Assembly: GCA_947364235.1 (NCBI GenBank)
Contig: CANARY010000003.1
Coordinates: 184,868 to 248,867 of the forward strand
From: an uncultured Candidatus Melainabacteria bacterium
Lineage (GTDB): Bacteria; Cyanobacteriota; Vampirovibrionia; Gastranaerophilales; Gastranaerophilaceae
Reading direction: 5' to 3'
DNA length: 64,000 nt
Positions 4,489 to 61,217 of this stretch are shown here, piece by piece (position 1 is the stretch's first letter; each line of letters opens with the position of its first letter). A model generated the notes under the pieces. That model ran no database searches. It had not been told where the DNA came from and saw only the letters and a list, made by a program, of their open reading frames with translations. Made by a program: the position numbers and the translations under genes.

Positions 4489-5337
4489 TTAGATTCTAAC
4501 TTCAAGCGCCGGATTTTTCCTGAACCAGGTAAGCTGGCGCTTGGCGTAGTTCCTGGAATGCTGTTTTAATTTATCAAGAGCTTCTTCTAAAGTACATTCT
4601 CTGTCTAAATATGCTAGAATTTCCTGATATCCGATTGTGCATACAAAGTTCTTTATCCGCCCGTGTTTTTTAAGAAGATATTTTGTTTCATCGATTAAGC
4701 CTTTTTCGACCATAATATCAACCCGCCTGTTTATCCTGTCGTACAGCTCTTCTCGTGAGCTAAGCTCCGGCATGAGCCATTCGGCTTCAAATTCAGGTTC
4801 TTTTTTGAGTTCTATGTCTGAAAGCGGACGGTTTAATACTTTTATTACTTCAAGTGCACGTACAATTCTGCGCTTGTTTGCGTCTTTAACTCTTTCAAAA
4901 GTTAGTATATCAAGCTTTTTGAGCTCTTCCAGCAAATCTTCTTTTTCTCTTAAATCAAGTTCTTCTCTAAGCTTTGGGTTAGCTTCTACTCGGGGAAGGT
5001 TGTAGTTTTCAAGAAGTATTCTAAAATAAAGCCCTGTTCCGCCTGCAACAATCGGCGTTTTTCCGCGTGAAAGTATATCGTAAATTGCTTTCTTGGCGTC
5101 ATCGTGATAATTTCCGGCTGAGTAATCAAATTCCGGCTCAACAATATCAATAAGATGATGAGGAACTCCTTCTCGCTCTTCCATATCAGGCTTTGCAGAA
5201 GCTATGTCAAATCCTTTGTATACAAGCCTTGAATCAGCGGAAACAACCTCGCCGTTCATTTGTTTTGCGAGTTTGATTGCAAGTGCTGTTTTTCCGCTGG
5301 CAGTCGGACCGACTACTGCTATTACTTTAGGTTTCAT
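4489..5337 (-). CDS. miaA: tRNA dimethylallyltransferase
   Basis: VVGPTASGKT P-loop, VSADSRLVY, GGTGLY, RNYAKRQLTWFR. Confidence 0.97.
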   Translation of the reverse strand: MKPKVIAVVGPTASGKTALAIKLAKQMNGEVVSADSRLVYKGFDIASAKPDMEEREGVPHHLIDIVEPEFDYSAGNYHDDAKKAIYDILSRGKTPIVAGGTGLYFRILLENYNLPRVEANPKLREELDLREKEDLLEELKKLDILTFERVKDANKRRIVRALEVIKVLNRPLSDIELKKEPEFEAEWLMPELSSREELYDRINRRVDIMVEKGLIDETKYLLKKHGRIKNFVCTIGYQEILAYLDRECTLEEALDKLKQHSRNYAKRQLTWFRKNPALEVRI

Positions 5338-5382
5338 AACTATATTCTACCGTAAAATAAGAAAGTATGTTATAATAAACGT
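5338..5382. promoter_or_regulatory. Back-to-back -10 elements, each 6 nt from a start codon (divergent leaderless promoters)
   Basis: Minus strand: TAGAAT (5344-5349), atagtt, ATG of miaA. Plus strand: TG-T-TATAAT (5371-5376), aaacgt, ATG 5383. No SD on either side. Confidence 0.7.
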
Positions 5383-6207
5383 ATGTTAAAGAAAATTTTT
5401 GCATCAATTTTACTTTCAATGTCAATTTCTGTTTATGCTGCAGAAATCCCTGTTGATGCAAAATTAGATTATAATCAGGGGATAGATTTTTATAAGCTTG
5501 GTATGTATGAACGCGCGATTGAGTCGTTTCGTTCTGCAGTAAGAGCTTATCCGGATTATACAGATGCTTATTATAATCTGGCGGCTGTTCTTGAGTATCT
5601 CAAACAGTATGCTGAAGCACTTTCTGTCTACAAACAGGTTTATTTGAGAAGCCCGAATGATTATGAAGTTATATACAAGCTTGCTTATATTAGCTCAAAG
5701 CTTGATGATAACGCTAAAGCAGCAGAATATTTGAAGCTTATTCCAGAGACCAGCAGTTATTATAAACGCGGTCAGGAGCTTGCTGAGACGATAAAAGTAT
5801 CTACAGAGCTTCCTCCTCCGCAGGCAAATGCGCCTTCAAAAATAGCTTCTCATACAGGAGTGTATGAAAATATTTTGAGTCCGACCGGTATAACAACAGA
5901 TAAATCGGGAAATATTTATGTTGCAACTTTTTCTGATAATACAATTATAAAAATTACTCCTGACGGGAAAAGACAAGTTTTCTTGAAAAGTACTCTCATA
6001 AGCGGTCCGATTAGTTTAACGTCTGATAGTATCGGAAATCTTTATGTTTCTAACTACAATACCAATAATGTTGTTAAAATTACACCTCAGGGAGCTGCTT
6101 CTGTTTTTGTTTCGAAGCTTGATAAACCTTACGGTCTGCATATCGAAGGCAACATGCTCTTTATAACCTGCCAGGGTTCAAACGCAATTTTCAGGCAGAA
6201 ACTTTAG
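5383..6207 (+). CDS. Exported TPR-repeat protein with C-terminal NHL/SMP-30-like beta-propeller repeats
   Basis: Signal peptide; TPRs (YNQGIDFY, DAYYNLAAVL); NHL-like PTGITTDKSGNIYV, PISLTSDSIGNLYV, PYGLHIEG. Confidence 0.8.
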   Translation: MLKKIFASILLSMSISVYAAEIPVDAKLDYNQGIDFYKLGMYERAIESFRSAVRAYPDYTDAYYNLAAVLEYLKQYAEALSVYKQVYLRSPNDYEVIYKLAYISSKLDDNAKAAEYLKLIPETSSYYKRGQELAETIKVSTELPPPQANAPSKIASHTGVYENILSPTGITTDKSGNIYVATFSDNTIIKITPDGKRQVFLKSTLISGPISLTSDSIGNLYVSNYNTNNVVKITPQGAASVFVSKLDKPYGLHIEGNMLFITCQGSNAIFRQKL

Positions 6208-6253
6208 GACCTATAGTCTGTAGTTCCAAATCAACCCAATATATTTACCTTCC

Positions 6254-7060
6254 CTATAAATAGCATTTAGATTCTTCGCCGTCTACTCCAGCAAATAGCT
6301 CAACGTATTGTTTTGCAGGGCTTGAGTCTATTTTTGTAAACAAAACTTCTTCTATCTGGAAAAAACCGACATCTGCAGACATGTCGACAGTAATTTTTAT
6401 TGGTTTTCTTTCTCCGTGCTGAATTCTAATTCTATTAATTGCATTAGCTGAATACTTGTGAATATCACCGACTTTCGGAGTTGTATTGATTGAAAGCGGA
6501 ATTCTTGCTCTGCCTTTTGTCATATCGCATCCGTCGGCAATAAGAATAATTCCGGCTTCAATTGAATGGATTTTTCTTGATGACATGTGTCCGATAATTG
6601 CTTCAATAACAACTGAGCGGATTACGACTCTTCTATGCAAATCGTTAGGAAAAACATGCATCAAAGCCCGTTCGATTAAAGGTTTAGCAAGGATAACAGA
6701 CATTTCTTCGTGTCCCTGCCTTCCAATCATCATACCTAAATCGTGCATAAGTCCTGCTAAAATGACTGCACACATACTGTCTTCAAAAGTTCCGATTTCT
6801 TCTGTTTCTAAAGAAGTTTTGATTCCGCATTCGTGCAGAATGTTTAACATTTTGATTGAATTTGCTGCTACTTGTCTCATGTGAACAGGGCCGTGGTCGT
6901 TGTAGCCAAGGCGTTTGATTGAGACATTATTTGCGTAATCCTGCATTTCTTGCAATTCTTCATCTTCAAACAAATAATTTACAAGCTTCAAACAGTTAGG
7001 GTAACCTTGCAGTCTCTTTAAAATTTTAGACTCTACTGATACTTCTTTAACTGACTTCAT
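6254..7060 (-). CDS. HD-superfamily phosphohydrolase (COG3294-like)
   Basis: GYNDHGPVH, LMHDLG and ADGCD motifs. Confidence 0.85.
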   Translation of the reverse strand: MKSVKEVSVESKILKRLQGYPNCLKLVNYLFEDEELQEMQDYANNVSIKRLGYNDHGPVHMRQVAANSIKMLNILHECGIKTSLETEEIGTFEDSMCAVILAGLMHDLGMMIGRQGHEEMSVILAKPLIERALMHVFPNDLHRRVVIRSVVIEAIIGHMSSRKIHSIEAGIILIADGCDMTKGRARIPLSINTTPKVGDIHKYSANAINRIRIQHGERKPIKITVDMSADVGFFQIEEVLFTKIDSSPAKQYVELFAGVDGEESKCYL

Positions 7061-7078
7061 ATACTCATGATAACATTA

Positions 7079-8455
7079 TTATTTGAGTTTATCAATATGT
7101 AGTATAAGCGGTTTTTCCTTAGGAGAGAGTTTGAGCATAAGTTTGCAAAAACTTGTAATATAACTTGGTGTCAGTTGAACTTTTTTAAAAATTCCGTTGT
7201 TGCATAGTTCGATTAATCTGTCGACATACTTTTGGCAATAATTATAAGTTTCTGGATGTATTCTAAGCTGTTCGGCAATTGTTCTGTGACCGCGTTCAGA
7301 GTTAAAGTAGGCAGTTGTAATTGCGTAGTTTTCAATACAGTTTCTGCCTTTTTTAGAATAAGGTACCAGATGGTCAATACTTCCGGAAGAAGATTTAACA
7401 ATACTGTTTCCAATTTTTTCAGATGAAAGTTCAGCGTGTTTCATAATAAACGCAGAAAGACTTTCATGAGAAGTTGGCAGCTTTATTGCGGCTTTATTTA
7501 TTCTATGAGCAAGTTTTGTGTTTTCAAGGGTGTCAGTAATTATTTTTATATCTTCAATGAATGATTTTCTGTTAAATGGAATTATAATTGGGGTGCCATA
7601 AATTTTTGCACGTGTTTGAGTGAATAGCCGCATTAAATCAGCGTTATTTCGAAGTACACTTTCAGCTGCCATTATTTCCATTTTTGTAAGCAGTTCTGCT
7701 CTTTTTCTGGTCAAAGTTTTTTCGCTTCTGGATTGTTTTACTCTTTTTGCTTTTGAAATATTAATAGTTGGTTCTACTGGGTCAGGCATTTTTTTTGCTA
7801 AGCGCATAAGTTTAAGCATTACATTAAATTCAACGCCTTTATGCTTTTTTGAATATTCATTTGCAATTTGGTGCAGCTTGTATCTGAATTCCCTGCCGTC
7901 GTATGGTAAAACAACAGGTTCGTGGTTAATTCTTTTACACACTGTATCAATTAATGCATCAAATTGACGTAATTGTTCATCCGGCATCTGGCTTGCAAGT
8001 TCAGAAATTTCTTCAAGAACGGGAATTTGTTCTTTAATAAGCTTTTTATTTTGTTCCGGAGCTAATACACGGATAACATCTTCGAGGTGATATTGCGGGT
8101 TCACTTTTGCCATGTTTTTGACTATTGAGAAGAATTGTCCTTCTACACTGAGAAGCCTGTCTTCATAAGGCATTAATGCTTTCACAATATGCCTTATTGT
8201 TTTTGCAAAAGTGTGTTTTTTATTCATTGCATCAATGGTTTCTTGCGGAATAACATATTTTCCTGAATAAATTCCGGGTATTCCGTAGCTCATTAATGCT
8301 CTCAGAGGTTCTGCATGTTTTGCAGCGCCTTGAAACGAAACTGCGTCGACTTGTAGCGGCTGCGTCAATACAGGCTCCCTGTATTGAGAATAATCATACT
8401 GATTATTCTTATTTATTCCTAAAAGTTGATTAGTGAAGATTGGTAAAATTCTCAT
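7079..8455 (-). CDS. Hypothetical protein with C-terminal HNH-like motif
   Basis: SIDHLVPYSKKG...ENYAITTAYFNSERG resembles an HNH core (DH..P...GG....N.......N..KG) without the CxxC. AGGAG SD. Confidence 0.6.
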   Translation of the reverse strand: MRILPIFTNQLLGINKNNQYDYSQYREPVLTQPLQVDAVSFQGAAKHAEPLRALMSYGIPGIYSGKYVIPQETIDAMNKKHTFAKTIRHIVKALMPYEDRLLSVEGQFFSIVKNMAKVNPQYHLEDVIRVLAPEQNKKLIKEQIPVLEEISELASQMPDEQLRQFDALIDTVCKRINHEPVVLPYDGREFRYKLHQIANEYSKKHKGVEFNVMLKLMRLAKKMPDPVEPTINISKAKRVKQSRSEKTLTRKRAELLTKMEIMAAESVLRNNADLMRLFTQTRAKIYGTPIIIPFNRKSFIEDIKIITDTLENTKLAHRINKAAIKLPTSHESLSAFIMKHAELSSEKIGNSIVKSSSGSIDHLVPYSKKGRNCIENYAITTAYFNSERGHRTIAEQLRIHPETYNYCQKYVDRLIELCNNGIFKKVQLTPSYITSFCKLMLKLSPKEKPLILHIDKLK

Positions 8456-8521: not shown

Positions 8522-8527
8522 CAAAGT

Positions 8528-9535: not shown

Positions 9536-10843
9536 TTAGTCGAGAATACCGAACTTAGCTTTTTCGCGTTTTGTTTCAACAGCTTGGTAACTGTCATTAA
9601 TATCGCTTGCTTTAAGTCCGAATAAAGCAGGATGAGTAAGTTTTCCGGCTCCAAATACAAGGTGCATAAAATTCTTTGTAATTGTAATTGCTGAAAACAT
9701 TGAAACAATTACACCGATAGCAAGAGTTAATGCAAACCCTTTTACTACGCTTGTACCGCAGCAGAAAAGGATTATACAAGTGATAATTGTTGTCATATTT
9801 GAGTCAAAGATACTTGTAAATGCTCTGTCAAAACCGGAATTGATTGCTGTAAATAGCGTTCTTCCTGCTTTCAGCTCTTCTTTTGTTCGTTCAAAAATTA
9901 AGATATTCGCGTCAACTGCCATACCTATACTTAAGATGAAACCTGCAATACCGGCAAGAGTTAATGTAATCGGGATTGCTTTAAATAAAGCAAAAAGCAT
10001 TATACCATATAAAATCAGAGCAACGTCTGCAATCAAGCCTGGAGCTCTGTAATATAAAGCCATAAATATCATAACAAAACCAAGTCCTATAGCACCTGCA
10101 ATTTTTGATTTTGCAATACTATCTGCTCCTAAAGTTGGTCCGACTGTGTTTTCTTCAATAATCTTAGCAGGAACAGGAAGTGCACCGGCGTTTAAGAGGT
10201 CAACCATTTTCTTAGCTTCATCATAAACAAATCCGTTATCTCCGCCTGAAATTTGAGCTCTTCCGCCTGTGATTGCTTCTCTAATAACCGGAGCAGATTG
10301 AAGATCTCCGTTAAAGAATATAGCCATCGGCTGACCGACAAGCTGTTTTGTTAAATCAGCAAACTTCTTTGTTCCTTCTCCATTGAATTCCAAATCAACA
10401 ACCCATTGACCGTTTTGAGAATTTGTGCTCAAATTAGCTTTTGCTAAATCTTTACCGGTTAAACCTGTTGCTTCCCATTCAGCTTCTCCGTCTTTCATAA
10501 CCGGTTTTCTGAAATCAAGCTCCGCAGTTTCACCTATATAAGCTTTTGCCTGGTTTAAATCAGAAACATCAGGAATTTCAACAACAAGCCTTTTATCTCC
10601 GGCTCTTTGAACAACTGTTTCAGAAACTCCAAGCTTGTTAACCCTGTTTTCGATTGCAAACTGTAAGCTTGACATCATATCAGGTGTAATTTGCGCTACA
10701 GTATCTGAAGTCTGAGCTTCAAGAACAAGCCTTGAACCGCCGACTAAGTCTAAACCTAACTTTGTAGGCTTTGTGCAAATTATAACAATACATGTGATAA
10801 TGATTGCTACAATCGCCCAAAATAACATAAGTTTATTTTTCAT
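9536..10843 (-). CDS. secD: Protein translocase subunit SecD
   Basis: LGLDLVGG, IENRVNKLGVSE, VGPTLG, GMAVDANILIFER. Start moved to ATG 10843 (AAGGAG SD); the track start overlaps dapA. Confidence 0.97.
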   Translation of the reverse strand: MKNKLMLFWAIVAIIITCIVIICTKPTKLGLDLVGGSRLVLEAQTSDTVAQITPDMMSSLQFAIENRVNKLGVSETVVQRAGDKRLVVEIPDVSDLNQAKAYIGETAELDFRKPVMKDGEAEWEATGLTGKDLAKANLSTNSQNGQWVVDLEFNGEGTKKFADLTKQLVGQPMAIFFNGDLQSAPVIREAITGGRAQISGGDNGFVYDEAKKMVDLLNAGALPVPAKIIEENTVGPTLGADSIAKSKIAGAIGLGFVMIFMALYYRAPGLIADVALILYGIMLFALFKAIPITLTLAGIAGFILSIGMAVDANILIFERTKEELKAGRTLFTAINSGFDRAFTSIFDSNMTTIITCIILFCCGTSVVKGFALTLAIGVIVSMFSAITITKNFMHLVFGAGKLTHPALFGLKASDINDSYQAVETKREKAKFGILD

Positions 10844-13511: not shown

Positions 13512-14339
13512 TTAAATTTTTAGTTTACCTCTCTCTTTTTCATCCAGTTTAAACGATTCTTTTTCTGAAGGAAAAACCTCTTCTTTGACTTCAAGCTTGT
13601 ATGCTTCAATGCTATTTAAAACAGTGTCATGAAGGTTTGCGTATTTTTTTACAAACTTAGGAGTAAAATCAGTGAATTTCCCTAAAATATCATCAGTAAC
13701 TACGATTTGTCCAGAACAATATTTTCCGGCGCCGATGCCGATTGTTGGAATTCTTAAATTCTCTGTAATATATTTCGCGCTTTCTTCCGGCATAAGCTCT
13801 AAAACAATTGCAAAACATCCGGCTTCTTCAAGCTTTTGAGCGCTTGCTAAAATTTGTTCAATTTTATCTGAAGTCTTGCCTTGAATTTTGTATCCGCCAA
13901 TTGTGTTCATAAGCTGAGGAGTAAATCCAAGATGCCCGAGAACAGGAACTCCTGATTCTACACATCTTTTAACAAGTGCTAAAATATGCTCGTTGCATCC
14001 TTCGAGCTTAATTGCAGAAGCGCCTGCCTTAATCATTTTACAGGCATTTTCTAATCCTTGCTCTAATGATAAATTGTAACTCATAAACGGCATATCACCG
14101 ATTATAAAGGAGTTTTTAGCGCCTCGTGCAACTGCTTTTACAAAGATAAGCATCTCATCAATTGAAATATTATAAGTATCTTTGTATCCGAGAGCTACCA
14201 TTGCTAAAGAATCTCCGACAAGAATTCCGTTTATTTCTGCTTTATCCAGAACTTGTGCGGTTGAATAATCGTAAGCAGTAAGCATTGCGATTTTTTCGTT
14301 ATTATCTTTTAATCTTTGAAATGTACTTATGCTCTTCAT
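13512..14339 (-). CDS. panB: 3-methyl-2-oxobutanoate hydroxymethyltransferase
   Basis: LTAYDY, LVGDSL, DMPFMSY, KLEG, GIGAG. Confidence 0.97.
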   Translation of the reverse strand: MKSISTFQRLKDNNEKIAMLTAYDYSTAQVLDKAEINGILVGDSLAMVALGYKDTYNISIDEMLIFVKAVARGAKNSFIIGDMPFMSYNLSLEQGLENACKMIKAGASAIKLEGCNEHILALVKRCVESGVPVLGHLGFTPQLMNTIGGYKIQGKTSDKIEQILASAQKLEEAGCFAIVLELMPEESAKYITENLRIPTIGIGAGKYCSGQIVVTDDILGKFTDFTPKFVKKYANLHDTVLNSIEAYKLEVKEEVFPSEKESFKLDEKERGKLKI

Positions 14340-21798: not shown

Positions 21799-21889
21799 AT
21801 AAATTCCTTTTTTACATGTTAAGTTTATCATTTTTCATTAAATATGTAAATTTTTGGTATAATTGTATGAAATTAAGAAAGGCAGAAAT

Positions 21890-22873: not shown

Positions 22874-23731
22874 ATGTTTTTTTAAGTTTGTTTTAACTTC
22901 GTTTAAAGGACCGTTATTTGGAGCTGTAAGGTTCTGATAGTATTTTCTAACATAAACAATAGGGAAACGCGGCAGCCATGTAAATTTCATGATAACTCCT
23001 GCTGCATCTGCTCCTTGTGCAAACATAAGCTCATCAATTGTTTGCTCGTAAGCAGGTGAAATTGATGAAAATACTTTTAAGAGATAGTTAGTAGCGCTTA
23101 CACCGTAATAACCTGTTGTAACAACCGGTTTTGAGATAAGCTCGGTTATTGTCAGGTCAGAGTCTTTGTTTGACCATTCTGACCCTTGAACAAGCGTCAG
23201 TTCGTCTTTGTTTGCTCCTTCGATTTCATAAGTCTGACCATTGTAAGTTATTATCATGACATTTGGTTTTGGCATGTAAATATCGTCAAAAATGTTATCT
23301 AAAATCGGCTGGCCGTTGTGGTCAGTGATACCATACTTGAAGTTTTTGTTTGTTAAAAGCATTCCGCCGTAAAGAAGGTCGATTGAAGAATACACAGGAG
23401 GCAGAATTTCAAATCCTTTTTCATCAAAAAGTCCTGTTTTTTCTCCCCGTGTAAGTTTTGCGTATTTGCCTAAAAACCTGTCTGCTCTGTTGTATTTAGG
23501 CTCAACCAAAATGTTTCCGGAATCATCCATTACGCCGAATTTTGAACCGCTTTGAAAAATCCAGCCGGATTCTCCTAAACGGATAAGCTTCTTATATTTT
23601 GCAAGGGTAATTATTTCACCAGCTTCACTTTTCAGTCCAAATTTTCCGTCTTCATTATAAACAGCAGACCTTGCCAGAGAAGCATTCTGGATAATTGATA
23701 ATAATAAGATTAATAAAGCAAACTTCCTCAT
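22862..23731 (-). CDS. WG-repeat exported protein
   Basis: Signal peptide; repeated KFG.(I/L)D..G.....P.Y units. Confidence 0.8.
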   Translation of the reverse strand: MRKFALLILLLSIIQNASLARSAVYNEDGKFGLKSEAGEIITLAKYKKLIRLGESGWIFQSGSKFGVMDDSGNILVEPKYNRADRFLGKYAKLTRGEKTGLFDEKGFEILPPVYSSIDLLYGGMLLTNKNFKYGITDHNGQPILDNIFDDIYMPKPNVMIITYNGQTYEIEGANKDELTLVQGSEWSNKDSDLTITELISKPVVTTGYYGVSATNYLLKVFSSISPAYEQTIDELMFAQGADAAGVIMKFTWLPRFPIVYVRKYYQNLTAPNNGPLNEVKTNLKKHLSE

Positions 23732-23777
23732 AACAAAAGATTAGCACAAAATCAGAAATTTGTGTTAAATTATCTTT
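23732..23777. promoter_or_regulatory. Back-to-back extended -10 elements, each 6 nt from a start codon
   Basis: Minus: TG-C-TAATCT (23738-23743), tttgtt, ATG. Plus: TG-T-TAAATT (23766-23771), atcttt, ATG. No SD. Confidence 0.65.
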
Positions 23778-24311
23778 ATGTCGAGATTGAAACGTAGTTT
23801 TTTTAAGAAAAATACTTTGACTGCGGCAAAAAATCTGCTTGGCTGTGTTTTGTGCAGAAAGATTGACGACGTGGTTTATAAAGGAATAATAGTAGAGACA
23901 GAAGCTTATACTCAAGATGAGCCTTCTTGCCATGCGTTTAAAGGGCTTACTCCAAGATGCGAAGTGATGTTTAGAGAAGGCGGATATTTGTATGTTTATT
24001 TTACTTATGGAATGCATTACTGCATGAATGTTGTTACTGAGCGCGAAGGAAGAGGGTGCGCTGTGTTGATTAGAGCACTTGAACCTCTTGGGTTTGAAGG
24101 AACAAATGGACCTGCAAGGTTATGTAAAGCATTGAATATTACTAAAGAACATAATGGAATTGATTTGACTTTAGAAGATTCGCCTATTTGGATAGAAAAA
24201 GGAAAGAAACCTGATGAAATTGTTGAAACAACAAGAATTGGGATAAAACTTGCTGCAGATTATCCTTGGAGGTTTTATATTAAAAATAACAAATGGATTT
24301 CTAAAAAATAA
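23778..24311 (+). CDS. mpg: DNA-3-methyladenine glycosylase (MPG family)
   Basis: AKNLLG, IVETEAY, YVYFTYGMHYCMN, VLIRALEP, NGPARLC, RIGI, YPWRF. Confidence 0.95.
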   Translation: MSRLKRSFFKKNTLTAAKNLLGCVLCRKIDDVVYKGIIVETEAYTQDEPSCHAFKGLTPRCEVMFREGGYLYVYFTYGMHYCMNVVTEREGRGCAVLIRALEPLGFEGTNGPARLCKALNITKEHNGIDLTLEDSPIWIEKGKKPDEIVETTRIGIKLAADYPWRFYIKNNKWISKK

Positions 24312-24312: not shown

Positions 24313-26295
24313 TTATACCATCTCTCTTAACTTTTTGAGCTGGTCTCTAATTTGTGCAGCACGTTCAAAATCAAGCAGCTTGGCAGCTTTATGCATATCT
24401 TTTTCCAGTTTTGTTATGAGTTTTGGCAAATCTTTCTTATCAATACCAAGTTCAACCATTTCTTCTGCAACAATATCTTCAAAGTCTCGGTAGCTTGCAA
24501 CAAGAGAAAGAAGGTTGTTTTCGATAGGCTTCTTAATGGTCTGCGGTATAATTCCGTATTTCTTATTATGTTCAAGCTGAATTTCTCGCCTTCTGTTTGT
24601 TTCGTCAATTGCTCTCTGCATAGAGTCTGTGATTTTATCAGCGTACATAATAACTTCACCGCACGCATTACGAGCAGCACGCCCGATTGTCTGTATTAAG
24701 CTTGTATCTGAGCGGAGAAATCCTTCTTTGTCCGCATCCATTATTGCAACAAGAGAAACTTCCGGAATATCAAGCCCTTCTCTTAAAAGGTTAACTCCAA
24801 TTAAAACGTCAAACTCGCCAAGTCTTAAGTCTCTTAAGATTTCGACACGTTCGATGGACTTGATTCCGCTGTGCAGATACCTGACTCTAATACCTTCTTG
24901 CAGGAAGTAATCACATAAGTCTTCAGCCATTTTCTTTGTTAGGGTTGTTATAAGAACGCGTTCTTCTTTCTTTGCGCGTTTTTCGATTTCAGCTTTCAAA
25001 TCAGGGATTTGGGATTCAATCGGCTTAATCGTGATTTTAGGGTCAACAAGCCCGGTCGGCCTGATAATTTGTTCAACCATTTGCTCGGAAGTTTTCTTTT
25101 CAAACTCTGCTGGTGTGGCTGAAATATAAACTTTCTGTCCGACTTTGGCAAAAAACTCTTCGCTTTTTAAAGGTCTGTTGTCTTTAGCACACGGAAGTCT
25201 GAAACCGAATTCAACAAGCGTGTTTTTTCTTGAAGCATCTCCGTGGTACATACCATTTAGCTGCGGAATTGTAACGTGAGATTCATCGATAACTGTCAAA
25301 AAATCGCCCTGAAAATAATCAAGAAGTGTTGCCGGAGCAGAGCCTGGAGGTCTGCGCTCTATTATTCTTGAATAGTTTTCAATACCTGTGCAGTAGCCCA
25401 TTTCTTTTATCATTTCAATATCGTATTTTACTCGCTGCTGAAGCCTTTGTGATTCTAAAATTTTGTTCTGGCTTTCAAGCTCTGCAACGCGATTTTTAAG
25501 CTCTGCTCTAATCATTGCAAGTGTTTCGTCTTCGTTTTCGTCATACGCAATGTAATGAACAGCCGGATAAATCATTACGCTTTCCGGCGCTTCAAGTATT
25601 TCGCCTGTAAGATTGTCTATTCTTACGATTTTTTCAATTTCATCACCGAAAAAATAAATTCTTGTGATGATTTTTTCATAAGCCGGCATTATTTCTAAAA
25701 TATCCCCTCTAGCTCTAAAAGTTGAGCGTTCAAGAACAAGGTCGTTTCTTGTGTATTGCGTCATTACCAGGTGTTTAATCAAATCGGCTCTGTCTAAAGT
25801 ATCTCCGATGCTTACTTTGATTGTTCCTTTAAAATAACTTTCCGGCAAACCTAAGCCGTAAATGCAGCTCACAGAAGCAACAATGATTACATCATTTCTT
25901 TCATATAAACTTCTGGTTGTATTGTGCCTCAAGCGGTCGATTTCTTCATTGATGCTTGCAGATTTTTCGATATAAGTATCGGTTCTAGGAATGTAAGCTT
26001 CCGGCTGATAATAGTCGTAGTAAGAAATAAAATATTCGACAGCATTATTTGGAAAAAGTTCTTTGAACTCGTTATAAAGCTGAGCAGCAAGAGTTTTGTT
26101 GTGTGCGATAATAAGCGTAGGTTTCTGTACTTGCTCGATTACATTGGCAATTGTAAAAGTTTTACCTGAGCCGGTGATACCTAATAAAGTCTGAGTATCG
26201 TCTCCCCGCTTGATTCCTTCAACAAGCTGCTGAATTGCTTTTGGCTGGTCGCCTGAAGGTCTGTATTTAGATACAAGTTCAAATTTTCTGTCCAT
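24313..26295 (-). CDS. uvrB: Excinuclease ABC subunit B
   Basis: GITGSGKT, HNKTLAAQL, YYDYYQPEAY, DESH, QTIGRAARN, C-terminal UVR domain. Start moved to ATG 26295 (MDRKFEL), which has TATAAT 6 nt upstream. Confidence 0.98.
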   Translation of the reverse strand: MDRKFELVSKYRPSGDQPKAIQQLVEGIKRGDDTQTLLGITGSGKTFTIANVIEQVQKPTLIIAHNKTLAAQLYNEFKELFPNNAVEYFISYYDYYQPEAYIPRTDTYIEKSASINEEIDRLRHNTTRSLYERNDVIIVASVSCIYGLGLPESYFKGTIKVSIGDTLDRADLIKHLVMTQYTRNDLVLERSTFRARGDILEIMPAYEKIITRIYFFGDEIEKIVRIDNLTGEILEAPESVMIYPAVHYIAYDENEDETLAMIRAELKNRVAELESQNKILESQRLQQRVKYDIEMIKEMGYCTGIENYSRIIERRPPGSAPATLLDYFQGDFLTVIDESHVTIPQLNGMYHGDASRKNTLVEFGFRLPCAKDNRPLKSEEFFAKVGQKVYISATPAEFEKKTSEQMVEQIIRPTGLVDPKITIKPIESQIPDLKAEIEKRAKKEERVLITTLTKKMAEDLCDYFLQEGIRVRYLHSGIKSIERVEILRDLRLGEFDVLIGVNLLREGLDIPEVSLVAIMDADKEGFLRSDTSLIQTIGRAARNACGEVIMYADKITDSMQRAIDETNRRREIQLEHNKKYGIIPQTIKKPIENNLLSLVASYRDFEDIVAEEMVELGIDKKDLPKLITKLEKDMHKAAKLLDFERAAQIRDQLKKLREMV

Positions 26296-26411
26296 GATAT
26301 AATTATATACACAGGGATAAATTTTTGTAAAATTTTGTAAATAAAGACGCAATTTTTAGCTTTTAGCTCTGTTAAATAAATAGCAATTTTGTATGAAGGA
26401 GATTCAGCCGG

Positions 26412-27658: not shown

Positions 27659-28003
27659 TTACTGTGAGCTTTGCATTATAACAGTTACATTGCGTATAGC
27701 ATTCAAGGTCTTTGAATTGCAAGATGGAAGCAGTTCATTTATTTCTTGAATATAATCTAGGTTTTCTTGTATATTTAAATTAACTTTCGGAGTATAAAAA
27801 ATTATCGGAGAAACTTGAAAAAAGTTACAAAATTTTGCAAGCGTTTTACTTGTTATATAAATTTTTCCTACTTCTATTTTAGCAATTGTATTAGGCTGTA
27901 ATTCTACTTCTTCAGCTAATTCCTCCTGAGTAAGCCCTTTATTTATACGTAGTTCTTTTAGTGACAAACCTACATTAATTTTTATATCTTCGCTATTAAC
28001 CAT
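27659..28003 (-). CDS. XRE/Cro-C1 helix-turn-helix regulator
   Basis: LKELRINKGLTQEELAEEV...IAKIEVG...LAKFCNFF; TATCAT 7 nt before the ATG, no SD. Confidence 0.9.
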   Translation of the reverse strand: MVNSEDIKINVGLSLKELRINKGLTQEELAEEVELQPNTIAKIEVGKIYITSKTLAKFCNFFQVSPIIFYTPKVNLNIQENLDYIQEINELLPSCNSKTLNAIRNVTVIMQSSQ

Positions 28004-28036
28004 ACTTCACATGATAGTGTTTTTTACAAGTTTATC

Positions 28037-34077: not shown

Positions 34078-35033
34078 TATAAATCCTCTTGGTCTTTTGT
34101 ATCAATGTTGTGAATAATGGTTCTTACGTTTCCTTCAGCCTGAAAATCTTTAGGATCCATTGTCATCTTGATTTTGTCTGCGATAATATCTTTATCCTGC
34201 TGAACGATTTTTGATCTGCCTACAAAGTAAACTTCGTTAGGCTTTCCGGTTTTTGCATCTGGAAATACGGAAACTTTAGGGCCTTGAGCAAAGTAATCAT
34301 CAAACCAGATTTTTACGTGACCGCTTCCGATATAAGTGTTTTGTTTTTTGCTATACTGCTGATAATCAGAATGAATTGTAAGTTTTTTGCCATCATCAGT
34401 CAGAGCAACAGTTTTGGTATTTCCTGAAACACTCATTTCTTCTGTTATCGGATTGTAAACAAAATGGTGTCCTTCTGATTCATTATTTTCTTGTTTAACT
34501 CTTGCATTTCCGATTAAGTCAATTTTCTTTAAACCGCCTTTTTCGTCAGCAATAATAACTGCTTTATCTGAGTATGTATCAATATCTTTGTATTTCATTG
34601 TTACAGCGCCTGTGCAGACCATAACACTGCTTTTGATATCGTATTCCTGAGCGTCAGCGTTAATTGTAACGATTGGAGTATTGCCTTCTGTGATTACTGA
34701 CTGAGCATCTCCTTCTGCTCTTACGACTTTATTAATTAAAGAAACTTTTAAAATATTTGCTTTAACTTCTCTTTTTTTATTTGCATTTATTTCATAAGCG
34801 TAAGGTTTGTTGTAGAAAGTTGCGGTATCAAGCTTATTGTTGCGTCTGATTGTTACATCAGCTTTTTCGCTTTCTACAGTTAAGTTATCAAGCTTCACTT
34901 TTACTCCGCCGTCAAGTTTAATTTTCTTTTCTTTATCAGAAAAAGTCTGGGTTTTTGAATCGATAATTAAATCAGATGAAAAAACCGCCATAGTTGAAAA
35001 CATTAACAATAATAATACCAGAACCTTTTTCAT
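34077..35033 (-). CDS. OstA/LptA-like beta-jellyroll protein (tandem domains)
   Basis: Signal peptide; repeated beta-strand units (L.G.V.V, GDAQSV, GNARV.Q); directly downstream of lptC. Confidence 0.75.
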   Translation of the reverse strand: MKKVLVLLLLMFSTMAVFSSDLIIDSKTQTFSDKEKKIKLDGGVKVKLDNLTVESEKADVTIRRNNKLDTATFYNKPYAYEINANKKREVKANILKVSLINKVVRAEGDAQSVITEGNTPIVTINADAQEYDIKSSVMVCTGAVTMKYKDIDTYSDKAVIIADEKGGLKKIDLIGNARVKQENNESEGHHFVYNPITEEMSVSGNTKTVALTDDGKKLTIHSDYQQYSKKQNTYIGSGHVKIWFDDYFAQGPKVSVFPDAKTGKPNEVYFVGRSKIVQQDKDIIADKIKMTMDPKDFQAEGNVRTIIHNIDTKDQEDL

Positions 35034-35644
35034 TCAGTTTTTCCCTTTCTCTCGTAAAGCTTGGTTGTTGTTTTGCCGGCTATTTTAAAGTTCTCATATC
35101 CGGCGCTTATGAAGCCTTTTTCTGCAGTTGCAACCATTTCATTATTTTTCTTGATGACTACATTGCCTTCTGCAACAGTTTCTTTATCAGAACCTGACCA
35201 GATTAACTTATCTGTGTTTAAAGAAGTTGAATCTTCAAGTACAATGTAAGTATTCTCATAAAGTGTAATTACACCTGTTTTTTCATCGTAAGTACCTTTT
35301 GATGATTGAAAACTCATTGCAACATTACCATCTTTATAGAAATTTCCTATAACATTGTGTAAAGTTGCGATGCTGTGGTCATTGCTGTAATTTCCAGTTT
35401 CTCCGTAAATCTCAAAGTATTTACTTCCTTCTTTTGTTTCAGTGATAATAATTCCTATAGCATCAACTTTTTGTTCATCAGCAGAACCTTTTAGCTGGTC
35501 TCTTGAGTACTTTCCGGTAATCATCACAGCACTCATAAACGCCCAGGTCATTACAATCAAAACTGCCAGAACTGTAAACAGGTACGTTCTTTTTTTCTTA
35601 TCCAGATTCTTATATCTCTCATAAATTCTCTTAAGAGTTTTCAT
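35030..35644 (-). CDS. lptC: LPS export periplasmic protein LptC
   Basis: Single N-terminal TM helix, then S.KG.YD, L.TDKLIWSGS beta-jellyroll. TG-T-TAAAAT 6 nt before the ATG. Confidence 0.8.
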   Translation of the reverse strand: MKTLKRIYERYKNLDKKKRTYLFTVLAVLIVMTWAFMSAVMITGKYSRDQLKGSADEQKVDAIGIIITETKEGSKYFEIYGETGNYSNDHSIATLHNVIGNFYKDGNVAMSFQSSKGTYDEKTGVITLYENTYIVLEDSTSLNTDKLIWSGSDKETVAEGNVVIKKNNEMVATAEKGFISAGYENFKIAGKTTTKLYERKGKTE

Positions 35645-35675
35645 AGGATTATTTTAACATACTGAAAAATGCACA

Positions 35676-36839
35676 TCAACCGATAACGTAATCTTCTGTT
35701 TTCAGTGACAGAATTTTTACAACTTCTTCTTTACTTGTTGTAGAGCCAAAAATTATTGCAAACAAAGGGTTTTCATGCGGGTTGATTCTTCTTACTTCAA
35801 GAACATTAGAATAGTTTGATAAAAATCTTTCATAATCAAACCCTTGAATTTTCTTTCTTTCTAATCCAAATGGTACTTCTGCCATCGAGAAATAGAAAAC
35901 TTCTTTGCCTGCATTAGAAAGAATGTTATTCCAATCCGGCATTTGCTGTCTGTAAAAATATTCATAAGGATTTATGCCCCACGCATATTTTGCAACATCT
36001 GTTGTACACCAGCCTGCAAAACGCATTGGATTAACTTCTATGGGAACGATTGTGCCGTCTTCTTTTACCCGCAGTTCTAAATGCATAGGAAAGTTTCTGA
36101 CATTTTTCATTTGGCCGATTTCTCTTAAAAGCTGTCCGAATTTTGCCATGTATTTAATCATAATTCCTGTTGACATCAGGTAAATCCTATCTTTTACATC
36201 TTGAGAATTGAAAAATGGATGCTGGAAAATATTGAGGATTACAGGTTCTCCATCTCTATCAAAATAAGCATCAATTGCGTATTCTTCGCCTTCAATTAAC
36301 TCTTCAATTATAAATTTTGAAGCACTAATAACATGCTGCGGATACATCATAGCTGCCTGCCGCATTTCTTTTTCTATTTTTCCGATAACATCTTGCCATT
36401 CTTTTGAATCTTTAACTGTATGTACTCCAAAACTTAAAAATCCAACAGCCGGTTTTACTACTACTGGAAAACGAATTTCTGCCGGCTGTAATTTCTTAAG
36501 CTCTTCAAGATTTGCTGATTTAAAATAAAAATCAGGGTAAATCGTTTGAAGCATTTTTCTAAACAAAATCTTATCTTTAAAAAGTTTTATATAAGAAGCA
36601 AGATTGGAGTCTGGTAAATTTTTTAAAACCCAGGTAATTGCATTTTCAGAATTAGCATAAATCATCGGGAATTCTTGAGTTGAATAGTATTTAACAGCTG
36701 CGTTAGACGATATTATGCTAAAAGCGCCTTCTTCTATTTCTGCATTTTCAACGGCTTTATTGTCAAGCACCGGCCAGTCGTTTTGAACTATTGTTTCAAT
36801 TAAAAATTCTGAGACATACGGCTTCTCAATTATTATCAT
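35676..36839 (-). CDS. ATP-grasp domain protein
   Basis: DKILFR, PVVVKP..G, IIEELIEGEEY..D, HLELR, IEVNPMRFAGW. Confidence 0.85.
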   Translation of the reverse strand: MIIIEKPYVSEFLIETIVQNDWPVLDNKAVENAEIEEGAFSIISSNAAVKYYSTQEFPMIYANSENAITWVLKNLPDSNLASYIKLFKDKILFRKMLQTIYPDFYFKSANLEELKKLQPAEIRFPVVVKPAVGFLSFGVHTVKDSKEWQDVIGKIEKEMRQAAMMYPQHVISASKFIIEELIEGEEYAIDAYFDRDGEPVILNIFQHPFFNSQDVKDRIYLMSTGIMIKYMAKFGQLLREIGQMKNVRNFPMHLELRVKEDGTIVPIEVNPMRFAGWCTTDVAKYAWGINPYEYFYRQQMPDWNNILSNAGKEVFYFSMAEVPFGLERKKIQGFDYERFLSNYSNVLEVRRINPHENPLFAIIFGSTTSKEEVVKILSLKTEDYVIG

Positions 36840-56792: not shown

Positions 56793-58958
56793 TTACAGCC
56801 CGCAAGCGCAAACGCCGTCTTTGCAGCAATATCCTAAAGCTTCTTGAGCTTCAGACATTCTTACTTTGATACGTCCGTCAACTGCGATGCCTTCGCCTGT
56901 TTTTTCAGAAATCAATAATGGGTTGATGTCTAACTCATCAATGAATTTGAAATCGTTAACAAGTTGAGAAAGTCTCAATAATGTTTCTTCGATTTGTTCC
57001 ATCTGAGCAGGTTTTGTACCGCGAGCGCCTTCAAGAAGTTTGTAAGCCTTAACAGACTTAATCATTTCTTTAGCATCAATGTCTGTTAGAGGAGCGATTC
57101 TGAAAGTTACATCTTTCATAACTTCGATAAATACGCCGCCTAAACCGAACATCATCATCGGACCATACTGAGGGTCAGTTGCGATACCGCAAACCATTTC
57201 TCTGTTGCCTTTTACCATTTCTTGGATGATAACACCTTCAAGACCGTCAATTAAGCCTTTTTCTGTAAGCTTAGCAATTAAGTCTTGATACTCAGCTCTA
57301 AGTTGTGCTTCTGATTGGATGTTAACTCTTACACCGCCAACATCTGTTTTGTGAGAAGTTGTTTTTGAAGTCATCTTCATAACTACAGGGTAGTCGATAG
57401 AGTTAGCAATTGTAACAGCTTCTTCTTCGGTTGTAGCGAAGCCTGATTTACAAACTCTGATACCGTAAGCGTCAAGAACATCGATAGATTCACGTGTTGT
57501 AAGCTGTTCTCTGCCTTCATTAATTGATTGAGCGATAATTTCTTTAGCGCGTTTATAATCAACATTGAAAGAAGGGATTTTGCCTTCAGGTCTTTCCATC
57601 CATTTTCTTTGCTGGTTCAATCTGTTCAAACCGTCAGCAGCTTCTTCTGCGTACATAAAGAATGGCATGTTAACATCCATATCTGACAATGTAGAGAAGA
57701 ATTCTGATTTTGTCATAAATACACCGATAACAGGTTTTTGAGGGTTTTTAGCTTTAATTTCCATTAACGCTTTTGCAACGTCAATATCTTTTAAGCCTAA
57801 GAATGGAAGATAGATTGTGATAATCATATCAACATTTTCATCAGCGATAACTGTTTCTAAAGTTTGCTTGTAGTGCTCAATTGGAGCAGAAGCAATCATA
57901 TCAATTGGGTTCTTAACAGAAGCAGCTGAAGGTAAGAAACTTCTAAGTTTTTCTTTAGTTTCTTTGCTAATTTTAGCGATTTGCATACCGTGTTCGCAAA
58001 TTGCGTCAGTAGCCATGATACCAGGACCGCCTGAGTTAGTGATGATTGCAACTCTGTCACCTTTTGGAATAGGGCAGTTAGCAAAAACTTTTGCTGTAGC
58101 AAATAAATCTTTTAAAGAATATTCTCTGATAACACCTGATTGGTTAAGTAAAGCATTTGCAGCTTTGTCAGCACCTGCTAAAGAGCCTGTGTGAGAAGAT
58201 GCTGCGCTTGCACCTGCTGCAGAACGTCCTGCTTTAAGTGCAAGAACAGGTTTCTTTTTAGAAATTCTTGAAGCAAGCTTTCTGAAGTTTGCAGGGTTCT
58301 GGATTGACTCCATATAAAGAAGAATTTGTTCAACGTCTTCTTCATTTTCCCAGTATTCAAGAGCTGTTTCTGCGTTAACGTCAGCCTGGTTGCCGATAGA
58401 AATGAATTGTGCGAAACCAAGGTTAAGGTCTTTAAGTATGTTTAAGATACCGCCGCCTAAAGCACCAGATTGTGAAACGAAACCGATGTTTCCGCGTTCA
58501 GGTAATGATTCTGCGAAGCATCCGTCAAGTCTGATGTCTGGATGAGTGTTAACAACGCCTAAGCAGTTAGGACCAACGCATCTCATACCATATTCTCTAA
58601 CCTTTGCAAGAAGTGCTTTTTCAGCTTCTGCACCTTCTTTGCCTGTTTCTTTAAAGCCTGCTGTAATAATACAAAGACCTTTGATACCTTTTTGGTGGCA
58701 CTGGTCGATTGTATCAAGAACGAATTTTGCGTTAACAACGATGATTGCTAAATCAACTTCGCCTGGAACTTCTAAGATAGAAGTATATGCTTGCAAACCT
58801 TCGATAACTCCGCCTTTTGGGTTAACCGGATAAATATTACCGTTGAATTTGTATTCTTGTAATCTTTTCATAATGTCGGAACCAATTGTGTGTTCTTTGG
58901 TAGATGCACCGATAACTGCAACTGATTTCGGCTTCATAATTTTGTCTAAATTAGTCAT
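56793..58958 (-). CDS. ADP-forming acetate/acyl-CoA ligase (fused alpha+beta: CoA-binding + ATP-grasp)
   Basis: VAVIGAS, GPNCLG, SQSGALG, SIGNQAD, SHTGSLAG, HKTDVGGV, FGLGGVF.EV, LDINPL. Confidence 0.93.
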   Translation of the reverse strand: MTNLDKIMKPKSVAVIGASTKEHTIGSDIMKRLQEYKFNGNIYPVNPKGGVIEGLQAYTSILEVPGEVDLAIIVVNAKFVLDTIDQCHQKGIKGLCIITAGFKETGKEGAEAEKALLAKVREYGMRCVGPNCLGVVNTHPDIRLDGCFAESLPERGNIGFVSQSGALGGGILNILKDLNLGFAQFISIGNQADVNAETALEYWENEEDVEQILLYMESIQNPANFRKLASRISKKKPVLALKAGRSAAGASAASSHTGSLAGADKAANALLNQSGVIREYSLKDLFATAKVFANCPIPKGDRVAIITNSGGPGIMATDAICEHGMQIAKISKETKEKLRSFLPSAASVKNPIDMIASAPIEHYKQTLETVIADENVDMIITIYLPFLGLKDIDVAKALMEIKAKNPQKPVIGVFMTKSEFFSTLSDMDVNMPFFMYAEEAADGLNRLNQQRKWMERPEGKIPSFNVDYKRAKEIIAQSINEGREQLTTRESIDVLDAYGIRVCKSGFATTEEEAVTIANSIDYPVVMKMTSKTTSHKTDVGGVRVNIQSEAQLRAEYQDLIAKLTEKGLIDGLEGVIIQEMVKGNREMVCGIATDPQYGPMMMFGLGGVFIEVMKDVTFRIAPLTDIDAKEMIKSVKAYKLLEGARGTKPAQMEQIEETLLRLSQLVNDFKFIDELDINPLLISEKTGEGIAVDGRIKVRMSEAQEALGYCCKDGVCACGL

Positions 58959-59087: not shown

Positions 59088-59426
59088 TCAAATTTTTGTT
59101 TCCCAGTAAGCTGTAATTATTTTATTAAAATACTTTAAATCATTTATACCGGCGTTTTTTAGCTTTTGGTTAATTTCTTTTTTTAACTCAGCTGCAGTAT
59201 AAGTTTTTTCTTCTTCAAAATCAAACAAATCGTTTATGCTGCAATCAAGTGCTTTAGAGAGCTTTTCGATATTTTCTTTGCGGGGAAAACGGCTGCCGCA
59301 TTCTATGCGAGAAAGTGACAGTGGCTCTATACCAATTAATTCAGAAAGTCTTTCTTGTGTAAGTCCTCTCTTCTTGCGCATTAGTCGTATTCTTTGCCCT
59401 AAAAGTTTTTTTACGTCTGTTTCCAT
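59088..59426 (-). CDS. XRE/Cro-C1 helix-turn-helix regulator
   Basis: LGQRIRLMRKKRGLTQERLSE, LSRIECG..FP; TATTAT 6 nt before the ATG. Confidence 0.9.
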   Translation of the reverse strand: METDVKKLLGQRIRLMRKKRGLTQERLSELIGIEPLSLSRIECGSRFPRKENIEKLSKALDCSINDLFDFEEEKTYTAAELKKEINQKLKNAGINDLKYFNKIITAYWETKI

Positions 59427-59464
59427 ATAGACATAATACGTATATTAATGACTTTAAATAACAT

Positions 59465-59505
59465 CATAATTGGTATACCATGAGAATATATATGTACCAA
59501 TTGTG
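59465..59505. promoter_or_regulatory. Inverted repeat in the divergent XRE/LuxR promoter region
   Basis: CATAATTGGTATA versus TGTACCAATTGTG (11/13 complementary), 15-nt spacer. Confidence 0.5.
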
Positions 59506-59516
59506 ATTATAAATAT

Positions 59517-60035
59517 ATGTCTAAATTCTCAGAATACTTCAATTCAACATATTCAAAGCTTTCAGAAGAAAAGCTGACAGTAACATCAAGCCAATTATGT
59601 CTGCTTAAACTTCTTGCAGGCGGTGCGGTTCTGCGGGAAATTGCGCTAATGTGCGGTAAGAAATATGAAAATATAAAGAAACGAACTAATAACCTTTATA
59701 AAAAATTTAGAGTTACAAATCGTGCTGATTTAATCAGAGAAGCAATTAATATGGAATTGATTAAAACCGGTGATGTAACAAGGCGTTTCAAAAAGAGATT
59801 TATAAAACGCGAATTTTTACAAGATGACTGCCGGTTTCAGGATTTGACGGATGAAGAGGTTCAATATCTTAATCTTGTATCAAAAGGTAAAACCCAAAAA
59901 GAAATTATATACATTATGAATTTTTACGGTCTTTATCCTGCTCAATATGTTAGAAAATGTATATGCTGGAAACTTAATTGTAAAAATATGACACAGGCAG
60001 TAAGGGCAGCTTTTATATTGAAAATAATAAAATAA
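59517..60035 (+). CDS. Protein with two tandem LuxR-type HTH domains
   Basis: LT.SQ..LL.LLA.G....EIA.......IK....NLYKK..V.NR and LTDEE...L.LV.KG.TQKEI........KL..KN.TQAV. Confidence 0.7.
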   Translation: MSKFSEYFNSTYSKLSEEKLTVTSSQLCLLKLLAGGAVLREIALMCGKKYENIKKRTNNLYKKFRVTNRADLIREAINMELIKTGDVTRRFKKRFIKREFLQDDCRFQDLTDEEVQYLNLVSKGKTQKEIIYIMNFYGLYPAQYVRKCICWKLNCKNMTQAVRAAFILKIIK

Positions 60036-60136
60036 TTTATTCCCCGCTGCGGATGTGATAAAATGCTTTGTCTGAGTGCAATACAAGTTAAAATTGGCAT
60101 GAGTTTCTACAACTTTTTTAAATGTCTGACTTAATG

Positions 60137-60159
60137 ATATACATGACGAGCATGTATAT
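60137..60159. promoter_or_regulatory. Perfect 9-bp inverted repeat upstream of the third XRE gene
   Basis: ATATACATG-acgag-CATGTATAT. Confidence 0.55.
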
Positions 60160-60211
60160 ATGAATAATCGGCATGGTGGTTGTTGTTTGCTAGATAGGCT
60201 ATTCTACTATT

Positions 60212-60535
60212 ATGGATACTTTCTTGAAGAAATTTGGTAAGCAAATAAAAGGATTTAGAGAATTAAGAGGCTTGACACAGGAAGCACTAGCTGAAAAAGT
60301 GGATGTTGCAACAAACACAATCAGTGCTTGGGAAAATGGAAAATTCTTTTTAGAGTATCCTTCTATTTTAAAGTTGTGTGAAGCTTTAGAAATAACTGTA
60401 GAGGATTTATTTAGTTTTGCTTGTCCGTCAAATTCTTCTGATGCATCTTATTTGGCTCAAATTATTACCCTTGTAAAACAGCTTTCGCCTCAGAAGCAAA
60501 AACAAATTCTTAATATTCTGAAAACTTTTGAGTAA
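60212..60535 (+). CDS. XRE/Cro-C1 helix-turn-helix regulator
   Basis: FGKQIKGFRELRGLTQEALAEKV...ISAWENG...LKLCEALE. Confidence 0.9.
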   Translation: MDTFLKKFGKQIKGFRELRGLTQEALAEKVDVATNTISAWENGKFFLEYPSILKLCEALEITVEDLFSFACPSNSSDASYLAQIITLVKQLSPQKQKQILNILKTFE

Positions 60536-60602
60536 TTAAAAAGCATAAAGTTTTCTTTCATTAAATTGACGCTAATAATAATATTTTGTTAGAATAGTTT
60601 TC

Positions 60603-61217
60603 ATGAAAAATTTTTTATTGATTATAGTTTGTTCAATCTACACATTGCCTTCTTATGCTAGTGTTAAAGATATAGAGCAAGATTTAACAAATTGTTTAAA
60701 AGGCAAGTATTTGAGTTGGCAAATGCAGGCTTGCTCATTAGAAGCATACGAAAAATGTGAAGCTGAAATTATGCTTTTGTTTCGCAATAATGCATTGAAC
60801 AATAAAGCTTTACAGTATAATCAGACTTTGTGGAATGATTATAAGAAATCTGTGAGAAAATCAGTAATCAATCCTCTTAATAGTGCTACCGGAAGTCTTT
60901 TTCAAGAATTCGCTGCTTCTAATTTATATTATTTGGAGCATAACAGGCTTATTATTTTGGGGTATTATCTAAAAGATTGCAATTATCAAACAGAAAATAA
61001 TCGTTATGAAAAACAGATAACAAAATATCTTGCAGAGCTAAAAAATTATATGACTGATGAGCAGTATAGTTTGTTATTAAAAAATCAAAAAGATTGGCAA
61101 TTGTATAAAAATAATACAATAGCACTTCTACCTGTAAAAAAAGAACAAGTATCAGCAATTATGACTCAAGAACGTAATAGTCAATTATTTTCTCTTTTGC
61201 AGATATATGCGCAATGA
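60603..61217 (+). CDS. Exported LprI/DUF1311-like protein (two repeats)
   Basis: Signal peptide; C...M..C...Y, L...Q..W..YK occurring twice. TTGACG-18-TAGAAT promoter 7 nt before the ATG. Confidence 0.65.
   Translation: MKNFLLIIVCSIYTLPSYASVKDIEQDLTNCLKGKYLSWQMQACSLEAYEKCEAEIMLLFRNNALNNKALQYNQTLWNDYKKSVRKSVINPLNSATGSLFQEFAASNLYYLEHNRLIILGYYLKDCNYQTENNRYEKQITKYLAELKNYMTDEQYSLLLKNQKDWQLYKNNTIALLPVKKEQVSAIMTQERNSQLFSLLQIYAQ

Follow-up and report, generated by a model that had tools for sequence, protein, structure and literature searches.

Promoter-like boxes a fixed distance before ATG in an uncultured gut Gastranaerophilales genome: a putative leaderless architecture beside Shine-Dalgarno-led genes

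How is a gene started when its ATG has no Shine-Dalgarno (SD) sequence and follows, at a nearly constant distance, a hexamer that looks like a promoter -10 box? This question is raised by a 64,000-nucleotide stretch of contig CANARY010000003.1 (the whole stretch is hereafter called the window; 36% GC), in which a first-pass annotation had noticed TANNNT hexamers before 13 genes and had read them as the mark of leaderless mRNAs. That reading of the geometry is supported in silico by a spike of the motif at spacings of 6–7 nucleotides, by the exclusion of SD sequences, by promoter features, by conservation and by recurrence outside the window; each of its predictions that we could check computationally held. 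Judged from sequence, the hexamers are very probably sigma-70-type, mostly extended -10 promoters that would yield leaderless mRNAs beside SD-led genes.

The source organism is, by its UvrB protein and the origin of matching samples, an uncultured gut member of the Gastranaerophilales (Melainabacteria), the non-photosynthetic sister class of Cyanobacteria. We assign it in this way because its UvrB is 93%, 84%, 82% and 79% identical to the proteins of four metagenome-assembled genomes (MAGs), two of which are labelled Candidatus Gastranaerophilales or Melainabacteria, with the matches next in rank coming from other phyla at 60% identity or less, and because the metagenome DNA runs containing window sequence are from mouse and rat gut.

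Boxes and start codons in the window

Re-reading the 13 sites recovered every hexamer exactly as it had been described, always before an ATG, with 6 nucleotides between box and start codon at eleven sites and 7 at the two genes starting at 28003 and 60603. The absence of an SD sequence likewise held at 13/13 sites, the duplex energy with the anti-SD never being better than -3.1 kcal/mol, and the TGn of an extended -10 is present at exactly the eight sites claimed (ATG at 5383, 7060, 23731, 23778, 35644, 47609, 56706 and 60603). The sites are as follows, with a further weak candidate in the last line.

5335..5352, minus strand: miaA promoter and start; -10 TAGAAT at 5344-5349, 6 nucleotides, ATG 5337
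5368..5385, plus strand: TPR/NHL protein gene, divergent from miaA; TGTTATAAT, -10 at 5371-5376, 6 nucleotides, ATG 5383
7058..7101, minus strand: HD-domain gene; -35 TTGATA, 17-nucleotide spacer, TGTTATCAT, -10 TATCAT at 7067-7072, 6 nucleotides, ATG 7060
23729..23746, minus strand: WG-repeat protein gene; TGCTAATCT, -10 TAATCT at 23738-23743, 6 nucleotides, ATG 23731
23763..23780, plus strand: mpg (methylpurine DNA glycosylase); TGTTAAATT, -10 TAAATT at 23766-23771, 6 nucleotides, ATG 23778
26293..26331, minus strand: uvrB; TTTACA-N18-TATAAT, -10 at 26302-26307, 6 nucleotides, ATG 26295
28001..28019, minus strand: XRE regulator gene; TATCAT at 28011-28016, 7 nucleotides, ATG 28003
35642..35679, minus strand: lptC; TTGATG-N17-TGTTAAAAT, -10 TAAAAT at 35651-35656, 6 nucleotides, ATG 35644
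40941..40958, minus strand: GT2 glycosyltransferase gene; TAAAAT at 40950-40955, 6 nucleotides, ATG 40943
47594..47611, plus strand: dprA; TGTTATAAT, -10 TATAAT at 47597-47602, 6 nucleotides, ATG 47609
56704..56721, minus strand: gene for a 159-amino-acid membrane protein; TGTTATAAT, -10 TATAAT at 56713-56718, 6 nucleotides, ATG 56706
59424..59441, minus strand: XRE regulator gene; TATTAT at 59433-59438, 6 nucleotides, ATG 59426
60566..60605, plus strand: gene for a 204-amino-acid hypothetical protein; TTGACG-N18-TGTTAGAAT, -10 TAGAAT at 60590-60595, 7 nucleotides, ATG 60603
60197..60214, plus strand: HTH protein gene, a weak extra candidate of low confidence; TATTCT without TGn, 6 nucleotides, ATG 60212

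The start codon is ATG at all 13 window sites and at 59 of the 62 sites in the pooled loci, about 40 lptC orthologues among them; leaderless mRNAs use GUG and UUG poorly. The nucleotide at -1 is a pyrimidine at 13/13 window sites. These start codons could be pinned because Pfam domains begin close to the predicted N-termini (first residue 4 for IPPT/IPT in MiaA, 7 for Pur_DNA_glyco in Mpg, 5 in the GT2 enzyme and 14 in UvrB) and because no upstream in-frame start codon exists at 12/13 sites.

The exception is uvrB, whose start was pinned by alignment. The longest open reading frame (ORF) begins at TTG 26352, and the first-pass annotation had moved the start downstream to ATG 26295. This correction is borne out, as the protein from ATG 26295, which begins MDRKFELVSKYRPSGDQP, aligns at residue 1 with the UvrB proteins of Bacillus, Clostridia and other Melainabacteria. 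The 19 codons added by TTG 26352 are not conserved, and they pass through the uvrB promoter itself; by this alignment, ATG 26295 is the true start and TTG 26352 an artefact of the longest-ORF rule. The promoter, TTTACA-N18-TATAAT, matches the consensus at 11/12 positions and ranks in the top three of the sites that a generic promoter scan gives for 20 kb, and its box lies 6, 8, 6, 6 and 7 nucleotides from the start across five species.

Enrichment over the AT-rich background, on which the leaderless proposal had been staked, was tested on a window gene list of mechanical longest-ORF calls (about 60 genes), and TANNNT was found to spike at spacing 6, with 14 genes against a mean of 2.55 per other offset (Poisson 5e-7). 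TGnTANNNT occurs seven times at this spacing against an expectation of about 0.25, and the smaller peak seen at spacing 11 arises from the -16 element, whose TATGnT echoes the motif. Independently of the gene list, the ATG of TANNNT-N6-ATG is in 25% of cases the first in an ORF of 100 or more amino acids, compared with about 3% at other spacings; this start-independent test counts TANNNT-Nd-ATG only where the ATG is the first of its ORF, because internal in-frame ATGs confounded a simpler count. The same script was run on control loci, namely other uvrB loci from Actinobacteria, Bacilli, Clostridia and Cyanobacteria. Actinobacteria, the positive control, gave a spacing-6 count of 12 against a background of 0.62, and no spacing-6 spike was seen in the loci of Bacilli (2/153 genes), Clostridia (4/300) or Cyanobacteria (0/54). 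Splitting the window genes by SD presence, we found an SD sequence in 0/17 motif-bearing genes versus 23/45 of the others (Fisher p = 8e-5). Spacing-6 hexamers at three TTG starts proposed by the longest-ORF rule (2464, 10921 and 29619) look accidental or mis-assigned.

The boxes also carry promoter features that played no part in selecting the sites, counted here on representatives taken one per family. Of these representatives, 75% have T at -15 and 68% have G at -14, compared with TGn at 7% of all window hexamers; T at -17 (71%) and A or G at -16 (79%) complete TRTG, which in Gram-positive promoters is known as the '-16 element'. In 46% of representatives, versus 20% of all hexamers, a -35 sequence matching at 4/6 positions or more lies at 16–19 nucleotides. 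A pyrimidine occupies -1 in 20/21 leaderless families versus 114/204 others (p = 2.6e-4), and RNA polymerase favours starting at a purine +1 after a pyrimidine -1. A generic -35/-10 scan, which is not discriminating by itself, returned 79 sites versus 64.6 in shuffled sequence. Within the window, the architecture is found at 11/32 first genes of transcription units and at 3/30 internal genes, and 11 of the 14 motif genes are preceded by a divergent gene or by a gap of 60 bp or more. The three internal motif genes (7060, 35644 and 47609) each carry an extended -10 of their own within the terminal part of the upstream gene, which for the HD-domain gene at 7060 is co-directional.

Two pairs of divergent genes, with starts at 5337/5383 and 23731/23778, have their start codons 46–47 bp apart, and therefore the -35 region of each promoter overlaps the -10 box and start of the other. 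The 47-bp layout of the miaA/TPR pair is kept in the related locus L001 (14226-14273). A terminator-like hairpin with a T-run lies upstream of the membrane protein gene starting at 56706. In the contigs of runs X26 and X27, positions 56729-56955, comprising the 3' end of an upstream CoA-ligase-like gene and the intergenic region, are replaced by 24 other letters, and similarity between the strains resumes 22 nucleotides before the ATG, just upstream of the extended -10.

Conservation and recurrence

Conservation is clearest for lptC, for which we collected about 40 distinct orthologous upstream regions at 56–82% protein identity, with human-gut metagenomes among the sources. Every one of them contains TRTGnTA(A/G)AAT-N6-ATG, and the sequence further upstream is unconserved; counted per family, 39/39 lptC genes are leaderless by architecture. 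No motif at spacing 6 or 7 is seen in the families of its operon neighbours (starts at 35033 and 34077); one member of the 35033 family has a hexamer at spacing 8.

Orthologues of dprA fall into two states across species (loci L081, L085-L087, L092, L100, L101 and L110). Where the gene has its own intergenic region it is preceded by TGCTAAAAT-N6-ATG, that is, TGnTA(T/A)AAT-N6-ATG; no box is present where it runs directly on from, or overlaps, its upstream neighbour; and it is never SD-led with a leader. A box present only together with an intergenic region is the behaviour expected of a promoter and not of a ribosome-binding signal. Further orthologues in the related locus L001 have TGTTAATCT-N6-ATG before the WG-repeat gene, an identical TGTTATAAT-N6-ATG before the TPR gene, and TAGAAT-N7-ATG before miaA. 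Statistics for other species were counted per protein family and with lptC excluded, since its roughly 40 orthologues had inflated the pooled figures; on this basis, the gene families without a window orthologue give 8.5 TGnTANNNT at spacing 6 versus about 0.9.

The pattern recurs in the same genome outside the window. In about 50 kb extending outward from both window edges, taken with the source's own gene calls from assemblies that are apparently of the same strain, 11/62 genes have the box (6 at 6 nucleotides and 5 at 7), about 9–10 of them convincing, and 31/62 are SD-led. The motif genes there include mutS, smpB, a comM-like gene, nanE, an acyltransferase gene, a TonB-like gene and a DUF374 gene. 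Taken with the window, the architecture is found at about 23 of 124 genes (18%), and within the window at about one-third of transcription units, so that the description of leaderless initiation as a major mode is fair for this genome. The window's SD-led genes comprise 19 of the 30 internal genes and 11 of the 32 first genes.

Among the genes that stand out in the combined set are mpg, uvrB, dprA, mutS, smpB, the comM-like Mg-chelatase gene and those for small XRE regulators, which is a post hoc impression; the motif genes for repair and RNA quality lie at 23778, 26295 and 47609 in the window, at 7407 in locus L154, and at 13829 and 20706 in locus L150. Starts at 21831, 21863, 29619, 41006, 46735, 56184 and 61335 were rejected as leaderless, since in each case a good SD sequence precedes an in-frame ATG further downstream, and the longest-ORF calls at these positions are probably over-extended. 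A gene for a 561-amino-acid protein (777-2462) with a type IV pilin-like N-terminal methylation motif, MRKMRNSANGFTLAE, has neither an SD sequence nor a properly spaced TANNNT at its start (TGTATATATAAAT-ATG). Locus L003, from a related Melainabacteria MAG, has a gene for a 293-amino-acid protein that is immediately preceded by a tandem (AATAG)n repeat (about 10752-10800).

Mechanism and competing explanations

In the mechanism that we propose, RNA polymerase would recognise a box of consensus TRTGnTAtAAT, with the -35 weak or absent, placed so that the -10 spans -12 to -7, a pyrimidine occupies -1 and the A of the ATG is +1. Starting on that A, it would produce an mRNA with neither a 5' untranslated region nor an SD sequence. 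Translation would presumably be leaderless, with a 70S ribosome, or a 30S subunit with fMet-tRNA, engaging the 5'-terminal AUG. Other genes, with strong GGAGG-type SD sequences, would make this a mixed leaderless-plus-SD genome. Both the start of transcription at the A and the leaderless route of translation are predictions from the spacing and context of the boxes.

Several observations weigh against this interpretation. Some hexamers are weak (TAATCT, TAAATT, TATTAT), and -35 matches are poor at some sites. In other species, the loose TANNNT motif, counted per family, barely rises above a distant AT-rich background, and a clear peak emerges only with a local background or with the TGn form. 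The estimated leaderless share in the sampled loci of other species is also lower, at 4.5–6%; we give the difference from 18% little weight because those loci are dominated by long lptC operons and longest-ORF calls. Finally, the RNA runs containing the organism consist of assembled contigs only, at a depth of about 2–6, in which no 5' ends are readable; runs X14 and X25-X27, labelled 'RNA?', behave as low-coverage DNA, and sheep-rumen runs match a short repeat only.

The hexamers could alternatively be an A/T-rich, SD-independent translation signal (S1-binding or otherwise atypical) on leadered mRNAs made from a promoter further upstream, of the sort that has been suggested for Bacteroidetes and Cyanobacteria. 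Such a signal would suit an AT-rich genome whose sister group, the oxygenic Cyanobacteria, is reported to use mostly atypical non-SD signals (PMC3160421, PMC6028130), and it is contradicted by no transcription start site data. We nevertheless consider it improbable, as the motif has the consensus of a -10 box carrying TRTG/TGn, often with a -35 at 16–19 nucleotides; its position is fixed to one nucleotide, equal to that in the Actinobacteria control; it is rare before operon-internal genes and is lost from dprA where that gene is joined to its upstream neighbour; the pyrimidine at -1 is a feature of transcription starts and not of ribosome binding; and strong SD sites exist elsewhere in the genome. 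A closer relative of the leaderless reading accepts the promoters as real and places the start 1–5 nucleotides from the A, giving very short leaders or a downstream start codon, in other words near-leaderless mRNAs. The 6–8 nucleotide spacing among uvrB and miaA orthologues fits this, as does the flexibility of RNA polymerase, whose choice of start varies by about 1 nucleotide either way. Against it, most boxes by far stand at spacing 6, the pyrimidine at -1 and A at +1 form the context in which RNA polymerase prefers to start, and domain boundaries exclude downstream starts in miaA, mpg, the GT2 gene and uvrB. Leaders of up to 5 nucleotides are, moreover, usually counted as functionally leaderless, and we judge this variant very improbable.

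Least probable of all, to the point of being barely credible, is that the pattern reflects chance and composition, with cases picked by eye from 36% GC intergenic DNA in which TANNNT is common. The window does contain 3116 TANNNT hexamers, the generic scan exceeded its shuffles only modestly, three TTG cases at spacing 6 look accidental, and the family-weighted loose motif in other species lies near the distant background. However, the spike is limited to spacings 6–7 and is absent from the Firmicutes loci under the same script, and SD exclusion, orthologue conservation and recurrence outside the window all speak against chance, an explanation that we regard as already largely refuted. Leaderless transcription from extended -10 promoters thus remains the reading that we prefer.

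Relation to known leaderless systems

Leaderless initiation is itself textbook and widespread, about one-fifth of sequenced bacteria being already classed as rich in it (PMC6028130); what is new is the lineage and its contrast with the photosynthetic sister group. The finding adds a lineage and not a principle. The first-pass annotation knew of no description in this lineage, and in the library searched, papers listed for related lineage names included, we too found none that joins leaderless initiation with Melainabacteria. In the survey of Zheng et al. (2011), 207 of 953 bacterial genomes had leaderless genes, with TAtAAT and a TG peak at low GC; no cyanobacterial genome was among them, and Cyanobacteria are counted among the clades that are neither SD-led nor leaderless (PMC3160421). 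GeneMarkS-2 assigns 71% of Cyanobacteria to group X, which lacks a clear signal (PMC6028130). Since oxygenic Cyanobacteria are thus reported with neither strong SD sequences nor leaderless starts (PMC6028130, PMC3160421), the evolution of initiation signals across Cyanobacteriota becomes testable.

Leaderless extended -10 initiation might be characteristic of Vampirovibrionia as a lineage and distinguish them from oxygenic Cyanobacteria, with their weak SD sequences and lack of a leaderless signal, and the affected genes, weighted towards repair, recombination and small regulators, might be translated selectively under stress or slow growth. We offer this combined picture as a speculation that is more likely wrong than right by a wide margin. 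If the lineage-trait part were true, the change in initiation regime would fall at, or close to, the point where the photosynthetic and non-photosynthetic cyanobacterial lines parted. In practical terms, start annotation in Melainabacteria MAGs should admit leaderless starts, the longest-ORF rule misplacing that of uvrB by 19 codons, and the pattern TRTGnTAtAAT-N6-ATG may allow the promoters of an uncultured lineage to be read from sequence, helping to delimit transcription units and to plan expression constructs.

Among known systems, Deinococcus deserti resembles this genome in having many leaderless genes; RNA sequencing and proteogenomics assigned 167 of the 262 genes whose starts were mapped to this class (de Groot et al. 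2014, as reported in PMC6028130). The set here likewise includes repair and recombination genes (uvrB, mutS, mpg, dprA and the comM-like gene). The D. deserti class is experimentally mapped, whereas the class here is predicted from sequence. More broadly, group C of GeneMarkS-2 comprises 1028 of the 4769 bacterial genomes classified, most of them from Actinobacteria or Deinococcus-Thermus; in this group a Pribnow box lies 6–8 nucleotides from starts and SD sequences occur elsewhere, with 25–50% of operons leaderless (PMC6028130). Judged from the counts given above, our genome shows the pattern of this group, with a Pribnow box at 11–14 of 32 first genes in the window and SD sequences at many of the other genes. 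It is like Mycobacterium, Streptomyces, Corynebacterium and Deinococcus, in which the box stands 6–8 nucleotides from first-in-operon starts and SD sequences serve elsewhere, and its share of about one-third of transcription units compares with the 25–50% of operons in group C. Unlike that group, the lineage here is Vampirovibrionia/Gastranaerophilales, a low-GC, Gram-negative gut organism, and unlike the TANNNT of high-GC genomes its promoters are mainly extended -10 (TRTGn) with a fuller TAtAAT. In this respect, it resembles the TA-led genes of low-GC Firmicutes (Lactococcus/Streptococcus) and Mycoplasma, which have TAtAAT about 10 bp upstream and a TG peak before the box (PMC3160421). The TA-led share in Firmicutes averages about 4%, with a maximum of 16.6% (PMC3160421), whereas here, in another phylum, the architecture accounts for about 18% of the 124 genes.

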